Of a DNA stretch of 64,000 nt, positions 2,819 to 62,424 are shown in pieces. The DNA is from Abditibacterium sp. Its GTDB lineage: Bacteria > Armatimonadota > Abditibacteriia > Abditibacteriales > Abditibacteriaceae. Position 1 is the stretch's first letter, and the number at the start of each line of letters is the position of its first letter. The notes beneath the pieces were generated by a model. The model ran no database searches. It was not told the DNA's origin and saw only the letters and a program-made list of their open reading frames with translations. Both the position numbers and the translations under genes were made by a program. The DNA lies in the NCBI GenBank assembly GCA_965199495.1, contig CBDASK010000003.1:96001-160000 (forward strand), in the 5' to 3' direction.

Positions 2819-2983
2819 CATTGTCATTCTGAGCCGGGTGCCCCTTGGGCGGTAGGCACGAACGAAGTCGAAGAATCCATAGGTTGTGATTGAATTTGGC
2901 TTTCGTTGATGCCGTTACGTCATGGATTTTTCGACTTCGTTCGTGCCTACCGCCCAAGGGGCACCCGGCTCAGAATGACAATG
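2819..2983. repeat. Palindromic element family B (GTCATTCTGAGC...GAACGAAGTCGAAGAATCC) carrying the CGGGTGCCCCTTGGGCGG insert
   Basis: 62-bp inverted arms 2819-2880 / 2922-2983 with one mismatch; related copies at 21471, 33651, 52901, 62277. Confidence 0.92.
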
Positions 2984-3016
2984 CGTCCGTGCTGTTACGC
3001 AGCAGGGCGCAAAACC

Positions 3017-5695
3017 TCAATCGTTGGTCTTCGCCGGTTTCATCAAACTTTTGCGCAGTTCGTCCAGCATTTCGCGAATCTCCCCATCGGGAATTTTAAG
3101 TTCTTTGCCGTCCTCGCCGCGTTTGGTCACGTAAAAAGAGTCCTCGGCCTGGCCGCCCCATGTCGTGACTTTGGCGGTGTGAATGTCCAGCTCCAAAGCA
3201 GCCACGGCGCGCGAGGTGTGATAGAGCAAGCCGGGAATGTTGTTGCACACGATGGAAATGACCGTGTGTTCGTCCGACAAATCGTTCTGCGCGCTGATGC
3301 GAACCGGCGTTACGCTCTGCGAAACTTTCTTGCCCGCCGCCTTCAAAACTTCGTCCAATGAGCCGTCGCCGATCAAAACTTCGCGCAGCATCGCGGCCAA
3401 GCGGGCGGTTTGCGAACTGCTCAAATTGCGCCCGCTCGACATAATGTTCAAGCGGTCAACCACGACATCTTTGCCGTTGCCGGGCGCGCCACGGCTCCAC
3501 TTCGAGTTGAGCGCCGCGCCTTCCAAAGTGTAAACCTGCGCCGCCACGATTTCGGCGTTGGCCGCGTGAACCACGCCGCACAAACGACTCAAAAGTCCCG
3601 GTTTTTCGTCGTCGTAAGTCACCACAGTCATTTCGGCGACGTGATGTTCGGGCATCGGATAAAAGTCCACGATGAGCTTTTCTTCGGGCAGTTCGTCCAG
3701 AAACTTGAGATGCGTCGCCATCGTCGGCATCGGCGTGTTGAGAATATACGATGCGGGCAAAGTATCGCTGACTTTTTGTAAGGTGCCGTCGTCCAAATTC
3801 AAGTGGCGCAATTGGCGGCGAAAGCGTTCGCGTTCCTGCTGCACCAAATGCTCGCGCTTTTCGGTGTCGGTCAGAATTTCGGCGCTTTCGGCGCGCGTCA
3901 TCGCCAATAGGCAACGGTCGTAAAGCTCGCGCATCGAACTCAAATCGAGCGGCGAATAAGAGCGCTCGCCGACCGACATCGTGTCGGCCATCGAAAGCAG
4001 ATACAACATTTTGAGCGTCGGAACATCGCGCACGAAACCGATGACGCGCCGAATTGTGGCGGGCGCCGACAAATCGTGCAAACGTGCGCTGCGCGGCATG
4101 ACCAGATGACGCCGAATCAAGATTTTGAGCGTCGCCAAACGTCCCGCCGAAAGGCCCAAGCGTTCGCCGATGCGCGCACCGATTTTTTCGCCCGAAATGC
4201 TGTGGTCGGTGCCCGCCTCGATTTTACCGACATCGTGGAGGAGCGTCGCCAAAACCAGCAATTCGTGATCGTTGACGCCATTCCACAGCGCGGAAAGCGC
4301 GTCGTCTTTGCGGCGTTTCCACCACAGATTATCGAGTTGGCGCACGGCGTAAATCGAGTGTTCGCCCACGCTCAGTTCGTGCGACGGATCGGGCGGCGCC
4401 AGATGCAACATCGCCTGAGTTTCGGGAATCAGCGCCTGCAACACACCGCGCGCGCGCAATTCGGTCAGGATGCCCGCCGCGTTGCCCATATCGCCGATCA
4501 GATCGAAAAACGCGCGCCGCATTTCGGGCGCACGGCGCACCTCGTCGTCAATGTTATGCAGACTATCGTCCAAATCGCGCGACAAATCGGGATCGAGCGT
4601 AAAACCATATTTGCGCGCCAGAGAAAACGGCGTCAGCAAAAGTTCGGGATGATTAACGAGCGTATAGGGATGCGCCGCCGCCAAACTTTGGCGCACCGCG
4701 ACGAAGTGGCTGTCGAGGTTGAGCGGGCCTTCGAGCAACTGTTCCAACACGCGGTCGCAAAAGCGCGCGGCGTTTTCGGCGTGAACATAATAGTCGCCCA
4801 GCAGATTTTGCGCGGCCATGCCGTTGGCGCCGGTATAGTTGAAATCGCGCGCGCATTTATCTTGATAAGGCAAGCGCAAAACGTCGGTTTTGCTTTCGGT
4901 TTGCAAGTGCAGCCACACGCGCAGTTGCAAAAAGAAATCGCGCGCCGCGATGATTTGCTCCGCCGATTTCTGAGTCACGACGCCGCGCAAAACCAGTTCG
5001 GCGAGCGGCGCGTCGGTTTTCAGCAGCGCCGCCGCGCTCCACAACGCGAACTGAATATCGCGGAGCGCCCCGGTGCCATCTTTGAGATTCGGCTCGACGG
5101 CGTATTGCGACAGACCCAAATTCGCCGTGCGCTCGCGGCGCTCGGAGGCTTTTTCCAGAATAAATTCGACGGCGTCCCACGTCGAATAGACGCGCTGGCG
5201 CACGCGGTCGGCCAACTTGCGCGAACCCGAAATGTGGCGCGCCTCCAAGAGCGCCGCCTTGGATTGGTGATCTAAGCGCGCGATGTCCGAGAGCGGACGA
5301 TAGGCGTAGCCGACATCGAGTTTGGCGCCGTCCATCAACACTTCGATAATCAGGCGAAACGCTTCTTTGATAACGGCATCAAGGCACGCATCGTCCTCTT
5401 CGGCGGGCACGAACGCGATGTCGATATCGGAATGCGGACACAATTCGCCGCGCCCATAACCACCAATGGCAATCAAAACCAGATCGTCGGGCGAGGTGTC
5501 GCACGATTCGCGCGTGGACAAAACGTGTTCCCACGCCGCGTCGGTGATGCGCTCCAAAACGCCGTCAATCAAGCGTGAATAGTCGTCCAGCCACGGCGCA
5601 ATCGGCGTGCGCCGCGACGCGCGCTTCCAAAGTTTGGCGCGGCCTTCTTCGATTTGTGCGCGCAATTCCAGCACGAGCGGGGAAACGGGTATCAT
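3017..5695 (-). CDS. glnD: [Protein-PII] uridylyltransferase/uridylyl-removing enzyme
   Basis: GGYGRGELCPHSDID NTase motif, EPNLKDGTGALRD, HD motif LLHDVGK, two C-terminal ACT domains; start set at MIPVSP because the upstream extension is repeat-derived. Confidence 0.88.
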   Translation of the reverse strand: MIPVSPLVLELRAQIEEGRAKLWKRASRRTPIAPWLDDYSRLIDGVLERITDAAWEHVLSTRESCDTSPDDLVLIAIGGYGRGELCPHSDIDIAFVPAEEDDACLDAVIKEAFRLIIEVLMDGAKLDVGYAYRPLSDIARLDHQSKAALLEARHISGSRKLADRVRQRVYSTWDAVEFILEKASERRERTANLGLSQYAVEPNLKDGTGALRDIQFALWSAAALLKTDAPLAELVLRGVVTQKSAEQIIAARDFFLQLRVWLHLQTESKTDVLRLPYQDKCARDFNYTGANGMAAQNLLGDYYVHAENAARFCDRVLEQLLEGPLNLDSHFVAVRQSLAAAHPYTLVNHPELLLTPFSLARKYGFTLDPDLSRDLDDSLHNIDDEVRRAPEMRRAFFDLIGDMGNAAGILTELRARGVLQALIPETQAMLHLAPPDPSHELSVGEHSIYAVRQLDNLWWKRRKDDALSALWNGVNDHELLVLATLLHDVGKIEAGTDHSISGEKIGARIGERLGLSAGRLATLKILIRRHLVMPRSARLHDLSAPATIRRVIGFVRDVPTLKMLYLLSMADTMSVGERSYSPLDLSSMRELYDRCLLAMTRAESAEILTDTEKREHLVQQERERFRRQLRHLNLDDGTLQKVSDTLPASYILNTPMPTMATHLKFLDELPEEKLIVDFYPMPEHHVAEMTVVTYDDEKPGLLSRLCGVVHAANAEIVAAQVYTLEGAALNSKWSRGAPGNGKDVVVDRLNIMSSGRNLSSSQTARLAAMLREVLIGDGSLDEVLKAAGKKVSQSVTPVRISAQNDLSDEHTVISIVCNNIPGLLYHTSRAVAALELDIHTAKVTTWGGQAEDSFYVTKRGEDGKELKIPDGEIREMLDELRKSLMKPAKTND

Positions 5696-5736
5696 GTGAG
5701 GTTTAGTTTGGCTGAAATGCGTTGGAGAGAAATTCG

Positions 5737-5894
5737 TTCGTTTTTGGTTTTGCGTGTCATTTCGAGCGGAGCCGAGAAATCTTGCGGCCCCGCGCCAGCG
5801 GCTTTCACGTTCAGAGTTGTCTGTCATTTCCGCTGGCGCGGGGCCGCAAGATTTCTCGGCTCCGCTCGAAATGACACGCAAAACCAAAAACGAA
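5737..5894. repeat. Palindromic element family A (GTCATTTCGAGCG[G/A]AGCCGAGAAATCT)
   Basis: Perfect 65-bp inverted arms 5737-5801 / 5830-5894; related copies at 13804, 18772, 57617. Confidence 0.93.
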
Positions 5895-5898
5895 ATTT

Positions 5899-6747
5899 CT
5901 ATTTATTCTGTTTCAACGGCTGACATTTACTACAAAAATGATAACTGCGCGCCGTCTTACTCGCGCCCAAAACGCCGCGCTGGATGATGGTGCCGCATTC
6001 GTCACACGCGTCGCCCGTCCGACCATACATCTGCGGGATAAATTCACCATACTCGCCAAACGTATCTTGATAACCGCCGTCTTTGAGCGTGGCGCCGCGC
6101 GCCAAAATCGCGCGTTCGAGCGTCGGGCGCATATAACTGACCAACTCGCGCAACTTCTCAATCGGGATGGACGAAGCCGCCGTGGCTGGATGCAGGCGCG
6201 CCTGATAACAGACTTCGTCGGCGTAAATATTTCCCAATCCGGCGATGAGACTTTGATCTAAAATCGCCGCTTTAATCTTTGAATTACGCTTGCTGAGTTT
6301 TTGCGCGATTTGTTCGGCGGGAAAATCGTCGTCCAAAGGTTCCGGCCCCAATGTTTCCAAAAACGGTAACTCGACCGCGACACCCAATTTGCCGAAAGTG
6401 CGTGGGTCGGTAAAAATCAAACGTTTGCCGCCGCTCAAGCGCAGCACGCCGTGAACGTGTTTGTGCAAACTTTCGATGTCTAAATCGTCGTTGTTACTTT
6501 CGACGTGCAATTTGCCGGTCATGCCCAGATGAACCAGCAAGTTATCGCCGGATTCGAGCGGAAAATAAATCTGTTTGCCGCGCCGTTTGGCGGCGACTAT
6601 TTTTTGCGATTGCGTGCGCTCAACGAACGCTTCGATGTCGGGCGACGTGATGCGCGGCAATCGCGCCCACGTTTGAATAATGGTTTCGCCGACGATTTGC
6701 GGTTCGAGTTGCGCGCGCACGGTTTCGGCTTCGGGAAGTTCTGGCAC
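5899..6747 (-). CDS. mutM: Formamidopyrimidine-DNA glycosylase
   Basis: N-terminal PELPE after GTG start, RRGK, HLGMTG, DPRTFG, GLGNIYADE, C-terminal CxxC...CxxCQ zinc finger. Confidence 0.95.
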   Translation of the reverse strand: MPELPEAETVRAQLEPQIVGETIIQTWARLPRITSPDIEAFVERTQSQKIVAAKRRGKQIYFPLESGDNLLVHLGMTGKLHVESNNDDLDIESLHKHVHGVLRLSGGKRLIFTDPRTFGKLGVAVELPFLETLGPEPLDDDFPAEQIAQKLSKRNSKIKAAILDQSLIAGLGNIYADEVCYQARLHPATAASSIPIEKLRELVSYMRPTLERAILARGATLKDGGYQDTFGEYGEFIPQMYGRTGDACDECGTIIQRGVLGASKTARSYHFCSKCQPLKQNK

Positions 6748-6779
6748 GCCAATGAGTTTATAATGTGCCTCAACCAACC

Positions 6780-6926
6780 GCGTTTTTCTTTCGTAGAGAC
6801 ACCGATTCGGGTGCCCTTTGAGCGGATGTTTAAAATGTCGAAGTCGCTTCATCGGAAAGCAAACCTAATGTTTTAGACATCCGCCCAGAGGGCACCCGAA
6901 TCGGTGTCTCTACCAAAGAAAAACGC
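6780..6926. repeat. GTAG-type REP inverted doublet carrying the CGGGTGCCCTCTGGGCGG insert
   Basis: GTAGAGACACCGATT... / ...AATCGGTGTCTCTAC arms of about 55 bp with few mismatches, between divergent mutM and trmH-like genes. Confidence 0.88.
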
Positions 6927-6935
6927 ATTAGAATT

Positions 6936-7706
6936 ATGATAACTTCTCGCTCCCACGATCTCGTCAAAAAGTGCCGCGCGTTGCAAACCAGCAAAGGGCG
7001 CCGCCAACACAACGCGTTTCTCATCGAAGGTCGCAACGCCGTCGAAGCGGCACTCGACAACAATTGGCCGTTGCACGAAATTTTGGCGTTGCCCGACGAA
7101 ACCGAATTATCCGACCGCGCCCAGAGCAGCAGCCACGTCGTCACGCGCGTCGCCGAAACAGTGATGCAAGCCGCGACCGAAATGCCTGCGCCGCCGCCGA
7201 TTTTGGCGATTGGCGCCCTGCCCGATACGGTTGACAATTTCGACAGCGACGGATTGATTTTGATCATTGACGGCGCGGGCGATCCGGGCAATATCGGCAC
7301 GATGCTGCGCGCCGCCGACGCGGCGGGCGCCAGCCAGATTATTTTAAGTGCGGGCAGCGCCGACGTTTATCAGCCGAAAATCGTGCGTAGCGCGGCGGGC
7401 AGTTTGATGGCGATGCCGCCAATTAATCTGGCGAACCGCGCGCCCGAAAACATCGCGCGAATGTTACGCGAAAAGCAAATCCCGATTGTCACCGCCCAAA
7501 CGCGCGGCGGCGGCGATGCGTTTGAATGGGCGTGGCCGCGCCGTTGCGCCTTGGTATTGGGCCACGAAACGCGCGGCGTTTCGGCGGAGTTTGAAGCGGC
7601 GGGCGCGGGCGTGACAATTCCGATTTACGGGCGCGCCGAATCGCTCAACGTCGCGATGGCGGCGACGGTTTTGTGTTACGCGTGGGCGCAACGTTCGGGC
7701 GAATAA
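6936..7706 (+). CDS. TrmH/SpoU family RNA 2'-O-methyltransferase
   Basis: FLIEG, DPGNIGTMLRAADA, VLGHETRGVS, IPIYGRAESLNVAMA SPOUT motifs. Confidence 0.93.
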   Translation: MITSRSHDLVKKCRALQTSKGRRQHNAFLIEGRNAVEAALDNNWPLHEILALPDETELSDRAQSSSHVVTRVAETVMQAATEMPAPPPILAIGALPDTVDNFDSDGLILIIDGAGDPGNIGTMLRAADAAGASQIILSAGSADVYQPKIVRSAAGSLMAMPPINLANRAPENIARMLREKQIPIVTAQTRGGGDAFEWAWPRRCALVLGHETRGVSAEFEAAGAGVTIPIYGRAESLNVAMAATVLCYAWAQRSGE

Positions 7707-52879: not shown

Positions 52880-52900
52880 GAATAAGAATGGGGGAGCCGC

Positions 52901-53037
52901 TTTGTCATTCTGAGCGCAGAGGGGAACGAACGAAGTCGAAGAATCCATGACTTAACGGTGCTGACGAAAGTGAAATTAAATCGCAACCTGTGGATTCTTC
53001 GACTTCGTTCGTTCCTCTCTGCGCTCAGAATGACAAA
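52901..53037. repeat. Palindromic element family B
   Basis: TTTGTCATTCTGAGCGCAGAG...CTCTGCGCTCAGAATGACAAA; spacer homologous to the 2819 copy. Confidence 0.92.
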
Positions 53038-62276: not shown

Positions 62277-62424
62277 GCCTGCGTTGTCATTCTGAGCGGA
62301 GTGAGGCACGAACGAAGTCGAAGAATCCATCGCTTGCGTGATGACTTTCGCTTTTGCCTTGTCCAGAGTCGTGGATTCTTCGACTACGTTCGTGCCTCAC
62401 TCCGCTCAGAATGACAACGCAGGC
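62277..62424. repeat. Palindromic element family B
   Basis: GCCTGCGTTGTCATTCTGAGCGGAGTGAGGCAC...GTGCCTCACTCCGCTCAGAATGACAACGCAGGC. Confidence 0.92.

Follow-up and report, generated by a model that had tools for sequence, protein, structure and literature searches.

The window analysed here is a 64,000-nt stretch of an Abditibacterium sp. genome (G000:C3:96001-160000, where G000 denotes this 4.8-Mb, 3-contig genome), and it carries four copies of an 18-base motif, hereafter called the tag, within two unrelated doublets of the repetitive extragenic palindrome (REP) type. The first of these, a CGTC-type doublet (family B) at 2819..2983 with 98% complementary arms (2819-2880 and 2922-2983), lies between convergent genes encoding a glycoside hydrolase of family 2 (GH2) and glnD. 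Its left arm holds a tag on the + strand at 2835..2853 (the 18-nt core and an extra T), which stands where the commonest matching empty allele has GCAGTG, for a net gain of 13 nt (23 empty copies), and its right arm holds a mirror tag on the − strand at 2949..2967. The second, a GTAG-type doublet (family A) at 6780..6926 with its GTAG at 6793, lies between divergent genes for an Fpg/MutM glycosylase and a SpoU methylase and folds as a single long hairpin (z = -11.4). Here, the left arm carries a tag on the + strand at 6808..6826 (the core with one G>A change, and an extra A), where TATCG is replaced for a net gain of 14 nt (24 empty copies), and the mirror tag on the − strand at 6880..6898 has a TCT loop in place of the TTT of the left arm. 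The original prediction, drawn from the letters of the window, had reported these four copies (2835-2852 with a mirror at 2950-2967, and 6808-6825 with a mirror at 6881-6898), and we confirmed all of them. The sister elements that it named at 52901 and 62277 are indeed without the tag; both are family B doublets (52899..53037 and 62277..62424) that represent empty alleles. The spacer at 52901, which had been described as that of the tagged copy at 2835, proved to be related but inverted, with 37 of 49 bases identical, and hence is not the same spacer.

The tag core is CGGGYGCCCYYTGGGCRG, whose 18 bases make up a five-base leader, a 4-bp GCCC/GGGC hairpin and a two-base tail, and the insert measures 19–20 nt around it. 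Core variation was seen at positions 5, 10, 11 and 17 and comprised transitions only; the remaining positions were held constant by the search patterns, and one-mismatch searches revealed few other changes. The pair flanking the stem (positions 5/17) is mostly mismatched, with T/G in 96, C/A in 79, T/A in 49 and C/G in 13 of 241 contexts (the 4-bp stem being fixed by the search pattern). Tags occur in both orientations within one REP family, and they nest inside their own loop, up to threefold. CGG borders, which the original prediction had ascribed to the motif at large, belong to one variant only, the other ending in CAG; likewise, the position within the internal hairpin of the arm holds at the reported copies, but tags elsewhere also lie outside internal hairpins. 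In one REP arm of G002 (L001) there is a segment related to the tag that has a GAA loop. In six family E arms, the 3-base loop of the tag is swapped for a small GNA-type hairpin (GGYGRARCCA); this loop-expanded form, found at G000:C3:1417175-1417300, 3316581-3316710 and 4056658-4056790, is probably a second micro-insertion into the tag. At three loci of G020 (L031, L041 and L338), the tag is followed by a second unit that resembles it but has TAC or TAT as its loop, which suggests sister modules with other loops.

It had been proposed to count the motif genome-wide and across phyla, and the first of these counts placed it far above background: GGGTGCCCYYTGRG has 44 exact copies in the genome, compared with 0.136 expected under an order-5 Markov model, and the same pattern read backwards has none. 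A shuffle test confined to the window, with two mismatches allowed, fell short of significance, four copies being reached in 6 of 100 shuffles. Searching the genome with one mismatch recovered 67 copies at 41 loci, of which 26 had both arms tagged, usually with the same loop, in line with the proposed mirroring to the opposite arm, while 15 had a single tag (one of them chance-like). The host repeats belong to GTAG-type families A and D (28 of 160 and 1 of 14 arms tagged), CGTC-type families B and C (20 of 119 and 6 of 136, with an untagged family C doublet in the window at 5737..5894), the C-rich hairpins of families E and F (12 of 57, six of these in the loop-expanded form, and 1 of 26), and family H, which flanks a Y1 gene of the REP-associated tyrosine transposase (RAYT) type (1 of 9). 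Empty-site alleles are present in all seven families, where the tag is a minority form and not a fixed part of the consensus, and the families display at least 11 distinct junctions. Independent entry of a defined oligonucleotide into unrelated palindrome families, as originally proposed, is supported. All non-coding junctions lie inside repeats, which occupy approximately 109 kb of approximately 829 kb of non-coding DNA under a crude gene call, though the size of this enrichment is uncertain because REP-borne tags have been amplified and the gene call is rough. Altogether, G000 contains 744 long inverted-repeat elements (~99 kb) of many families, and other short modules are also common to REP families: GAGGCACGAAC is found in B and C (window positions 2854-2870 and 62300-62316; 23 filled vs. 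8 empty elements in family C), and a module containing GGAGCTTGCGA in a C-type family and one other.

We compared empty and filled alleles automatically, allowing a deleted block of 3–7 nt, and obtained 57 junction records with an empty partner among 231 tag contexts from 15 genomes; these records include variants of one event and are not fully independent. Net gain was +12 in 2 records, +13 in 9, +14 in 17, +15 in 26, and +16, +17 and +18 in one each, such that 52 of the 57 fell between +13 and +15. The deleted block was 5 nt long in 31 records and 4–6 nt long in 48, and it mostly ended in G (38 records), otherwise in C (10), A (6) or T (3). These junctions are most simply parsed as the exchange of about four bases for a core of 17–18 nt, behind which the next target base is retained and then followed by a single extra base. 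The kept base is mostly G, but C or T in Chloroflexota, and the extra base, mostly A, was a purine in 24 of 25 records before a pyrimidine vs. 13 of 27 before a purine (Fisher p = 1.4e-4). An IS5 gene of G043 harbors two in-frame tags with the ends CAG-C-A and CAG-G-A, for which the parse foretold the kept C and the kept G; untagged IS5 homologs (79–83% identity) read CGATC and GGACG at these positions, and neither site has a target duplication. Exceptions to the rule exist, such as GCGCA in G020. Neither the left flanks nor the deleted blocks contain a fixed word, and the junctions have no flanking homology. Single tags in G020 were split 17:10 between the replication strands, a difference that was not significant (the origin here being a guess based on 20 skew samples).

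Outside G000, a tag 14-mer was present in 30 of the 41 genomes searched, including 21 of 24 family relatives, and reached 288 copies in G016 (97% complete), whereas a reversed control gave 0–2 copies per genome. Further tag counts were 101 in G044 (whose loci were used in several of the other comparisons but left out of the junction table, and on which no conclusion depends), 92 in G061, 76 in G043, 72 in G045, 33 in G046 and 4 in G047. A GTDB-wide scan returned at least 123 stretches, dominated by Abditibacteriaceae and Chloroflexota; the matches listed also included Acidobacteriota, Gemmatimonadota, Verrucomicrobiota and Poribacteria, with some rows (e.g., Streptomyces) appearing chance-like. 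The 18-mer was found in 8 of 251 Chloroflexota genomes. The count across phyla thus located the same tag in several of them, and the tag is identical across phyla yet patchily distributed. One relative, G007, has 39 CGTC-type REP arms and no tags, and therefore REPs alone are insufficient to produce the tag. At the site orthologous to 6780-6926, the relative G004 has a family A doublet without the tag, G011 has a different repeat, several others have no such doublet, and G001 (L433, G001:C79:7285-7560) has a different doublet in which the position of the tag differs between the arms.

Targets of the tag beyond palindromes include transposase genes and phage genes. In the IS200/605 tnpA of G000 (L214, G000:C3:2810400-2810830), the tag causes a +14 frameshift relative to a homolog; a second frameshift lies ~45 bases upstream of the tag, and an overlapping open reading frame (ORF) follows. 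An IS200 gene in G012 is similarly frameshifted by a +13 tag, at a junction that fits the rule without the extra base. We also scanned 97 translated flanks of hand-picked, non-REP-looking loci, and found transposase families at four loci (Tn3, integrase core, IS630-type DDE_3 and IS5), along with ribonucleotide reductase, Calx-beta repeats, a trypsin-like protease, DUF1810 and several single matches; some of these are probably chance matches or neighboring genes, and most stretches yielded none. Taken with the two IS200/605 cases, the coding matches lean toward mobile or tolerant DNA. One tag (L078:350-470) was seen by eye to sit in a sequence that, read on the opposite strand, resembles a degenerate tRNA. 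Searching viral sequences returned 40 stretches, many of them duplicates or chance-like; approximately 10 share the junction and are located inside tailed-phage head genes and other genes or next to them. Two viral contigs (L359 and L369) contain diverged homologous phage head regions with a tag common to one site, and a 495-codon prohead-protease ORF contains a further, in-frame tag. Targeting of the single-stranded phage Inovirus was rejected, as the viral contigs checked encode tailed-phage head genes, and a TA-tailed tag variant was set aside since its matches in viral contigs were mostly chance-like. Among PLSDB plasmids, 17 weak matches to the tag corresponded to chance level, with no cyanobacterial row among them.

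From these observations, we hold with high confidence that the tag is a real, mobile-like unit. For the fuller reading, that a dedicated enzyme acting at a nick or break copies in the 18-base unit that takes the place of about four bases at so many unrelated sites, making it a very small mobile element, we consider the chances evenly balanced. We infer copying of a polymerase type from the ragged ends, the target base retained in the tail of the insert and the added base with its bias toward A; the first and last of these would suit synthesis better than clean strand transfer. In such a process, a polymerase-type step at the nick or break would use a tag already in place, or a short-lived template, to copy the core, synthesis would return to the target for one base and add one sloppy base, and sealing would follow. 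Turnover of REP doublets would then spread the tag to the opposite arm and onward to new loci, with survival mainly in dispensable or mobile DNA. A bolder version, which we entertain only tentatively and regard as rather doubtful, is that a horizontally spreading, gene-encoded writer stamps a fixed 18-base patch into breaks in REPs, transposase genes and prophages by an undescribed chemistry in which four bases leave, the patch enters, one base stays and one is added; if true, this would amount to oligonucleotide insertion as a natural system, acting either as a parasite of mobile DNA or to disable it.

Several points weigh against copying by a dedicated enzyme. The empty alleles are family copies or homologs rather than the true pre-insertion molecule, many tag copies are amplified descendants of few events, such that the counts overstate independence, and the enrichment in mobile DNA may partly reflect survival bias. 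Neither a writer gene nor a template was found in the searches made. The original prediction had the tag written from a common master template, but no candidate exists within two substitutions genome-wide (the 13 other matches being decayed tags or chance-like), and none of the 46 weak matches within three edits in non-coding DNA was convincing. It had also suggested looking for co-occurring genes; no protein family recurs beside tags except common ones (such as kinases and ABC ATPases), and none of the families examined fully tracks the tag. The reverse transcriptase (RT) domain RVT_1 was not found in the tag-rich genomes G016, G019 and G021, and Ku was absent from all five genomes tested.

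Individual candidate genes fared variously. A weak lead is a Thg1-like gene (3′–5′ polymerase family; G000:C3:767720-768031), which is present in 12 of 25 family genomes, all of them tag-bearing: it occurs in 12 of 19 family genomes with at least three tags and in none of the six with two or fewer. It was not found in tag-rich G008, G019, G021, G023, G043, G045 and G046, and thus tracks the tag only in part, among kin that are not independent. NucS/EndoMS, which produces a 5-nt stagger, was rejected as the writer, with no match in the 24 family relatives and one weak partial match in G000. Of the repeat-flanked small genes in G000, 104 were listed and none stood out as a writer candidate; small genes in this genome include some that we take, from known motifs or by eye, to be RAYT-, GIY-YIG-, DUF559-, GxxExxY- and four-helix-bundle-like.

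The main rival to enzymatic copying, which we think unlikely, regards the tag as the minimal hairpin substrate of an HUH Y1 enzyme (of the RAYT or IS200/605 TnpA type) that is strand-transferred to nicked single-stranded DNA, the deletion being made by host repair. The leader-plus-hairpin layout of the tag is REP-like, many right junctions adjoin T, and in vitro TnpA-REP joins a free oligonucleotide by its 3′-OH to the T at C|T sites (PMC8266576). Y1 genes are present in 22 of 24 family relatives, with eight Y1 matches in G000, and family H, as noted above, flanks one of RAYT type; however, Y1 genes also occur in the tagless G009 and G015 and gave no match in the tag-bearing G017 and G025. No flanking tags, and no intact tag-flanked Y1 gene, were found at six Y1 loci inspected (five in G000 and one in G020), and the absence of a fixed target word also speaks against this enzyme class. 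Moreover, we know of no HUH product with a split junction comprising a kept target base and an extra base. We find it improbable that the tag is the product of an RT that copies a fixed RNA template at a nick, in the manner of a retron, a diversity-generating retroelement (DGR) or telomerase. Such an origin would agree with the precise 5′ start, the ragged 3′ end and the A-biased extra base, and a tagged family F doublet does lie ~60 bases upstream of a 475-aa RT gene in G000 (G000:C3:1618095-1619780, − strand), which by its N-terminus is presumably retron-like, with the doublet in the slot where a retron non-coding RNA would be expected. RNA-templated addition by an ordinary RT, one of the routes originally suggested, is nevertheless at odds with the distribution of RVT_1, which besides missing from the three tag-rich genomes above is present in the tagless G007, G009 and G015 and so does not track the tag. 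Nor did we detect a collinear RNA source: the best tRNA match was 11 nt, a length equalled by 32 of 200 shuffled tags, the rRNA region had no match, Rfam returned only generic hairpins below threshold and none at gathering level, and none of the sequencing runs listed was an RNA run holding the tag.

An explanation without any dedicated enzyme, in which the tag was born in one REP family and spread by template switching or recombination among repeats, strikes us as no less improbable than writing by an RT. The GAA-loop related segment in G002 and the recombinant look of some singly tagged arms and fused double tags are in its favor, but the junctions lack flanking homology, transposase and phage genes show tags with the same boundaries and the same net length, and the REP-rich G007 is tagless. 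That the tag is the excision scar of a larger insertion element we consider very improbable. A fixed sequence combined with a target deletion would fit a scar, as would the family E form with its 7-base-longer loop; against this, no long element with tag ends was seen in G000 among the matches listed, and triple nesting at one position would require three rounds of insertion and excision. For the excision footprint put forward in the original prediction, no parent element was seen, and the target loses bases. Least probable of all, and close to negligible in our judgment, is a library or assembly artefact derived from an adapter or primer. Nearly all carriers seen are metagenome-assembled genomes, and PLSDB plasmids are without signal, as an artefact might predict; on the other hand, tags are mirrored in both arms, have decayed after insertion and have been amplified as subfamilies, and one is common to the diverged phage sites of L359 and L369. 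A contig of public run X1 covering 6697-7361 has zero differences from the window, although this run is possibly the source sample itself; contigs of public runs reproduce the window tags, and in three of the runs they connect the tag with arms of family C.

Returning to enzymatic copying, the same 18-base piece has repeatedly taken the place of about four bases inside unrelated repeats, transposase genes and phage genes of several phyla, and in this behavior it ranks among the smallest mobile DNAs, with an enzyme as the likely agent of its copying. To our knowledge, how elements of ~20 bases move has been an open question since the small dispersed repeats (SDRs) of Nostoc. The tag offers an exact and testable junction rule, presence and absence in close relatives and across phyla, and entries into ordinary reading frames, and therefore its mover can be searched for by comparative genomics and assayed with a reporter. 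An enzyme able to place a short fixed patch with neither homology nor target duplication would, if real, represent new DNA chemistry. By causing frameshifts in transposases or lengthening proteins by five residues, tags also influence the diversity of REPs and the decay of mobile elements.

Among known systems, miniature inverted-repeat transposable elements (MITEs) and the non-autonomous derivatives of IS200/605 are, like the tag, non-autonomous and hairpin-bearing. In contrast to MITEs, the tag has no terminal inverted repeats or target duplication, and 3–7 nt of target are deleted in the 57 records; unlike single-stranded DNA elements of the IS200/IS605 type, it has no fixed target tetra- or pentanucleotide, and its target loses bases. 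It differs from a retron or DGR product in that an RT gene and template RNA were not found to co-occur with it. Insertion sequences such as IS1397 and members of the IS110 family, reportedly described by Tobes and Pareja in 2006 as using REPs as insertion targets, share this choice of target, but they are kilobase-size, carry a transposase and use a defined site, whereas the tag is 18 nt long, non-coding, and found at many positions in both orientations. A further relation is to the GTAG- and CGTC-type REPs, REPINs and their RAYTs (PMC3733652, PMC3116915, PMC8266576 and PMC6006769), as the host elements are REP doublets of these types and the tag itself has a leader-plus-hairpin layout. Even so, the tag starts with CGGGY and has no GTAG or CGTC end (those ends belong to the host repeats), it is a passenger common to several families that forms no doublet of its own and also enters non-REP genes, and no tag-flanked cognate Y1 gene was present at the six loci inspected. 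Alternative loops inside one REP family are reported in PMC3733652, and Y1 classes are treated in PMC6006769; the passages of the two papers that were covered show no module common to several REP families.

The original prediction took this for the best candidate for an undescribed system. The motif strings occurred in no full text searched, and concept searches, which covered main texts, yielded no relevant description beyond papers that cite the SDR work of Elhai and colleagues, but in kind the tag resembles the Nostoc SDRs. Reported by Elhai and colleagues in 2008, the Nostocaceae SDR1-8 are said to be very short (about 20–27 nt), dispersed and mobile-looking, with an unknown mover, and reportedly nest in themselves and other repeats and enter genes. 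Compared with these elements, the tag has a slightly shorter core, 18 nt instead of 21–27 nt, and occurs in other phyla. The SDRs are also cited in PMC4390886 and PMC3116915, the former presenting SDR5 as a precise insertion within HIP1, whereas the tag replaces target bases and leaves a split junction. What the tag shares with the SDRs is that it is short and dispersed, has empty alleles in every one of its host families, nests in itself, and nests in repeats and genes.

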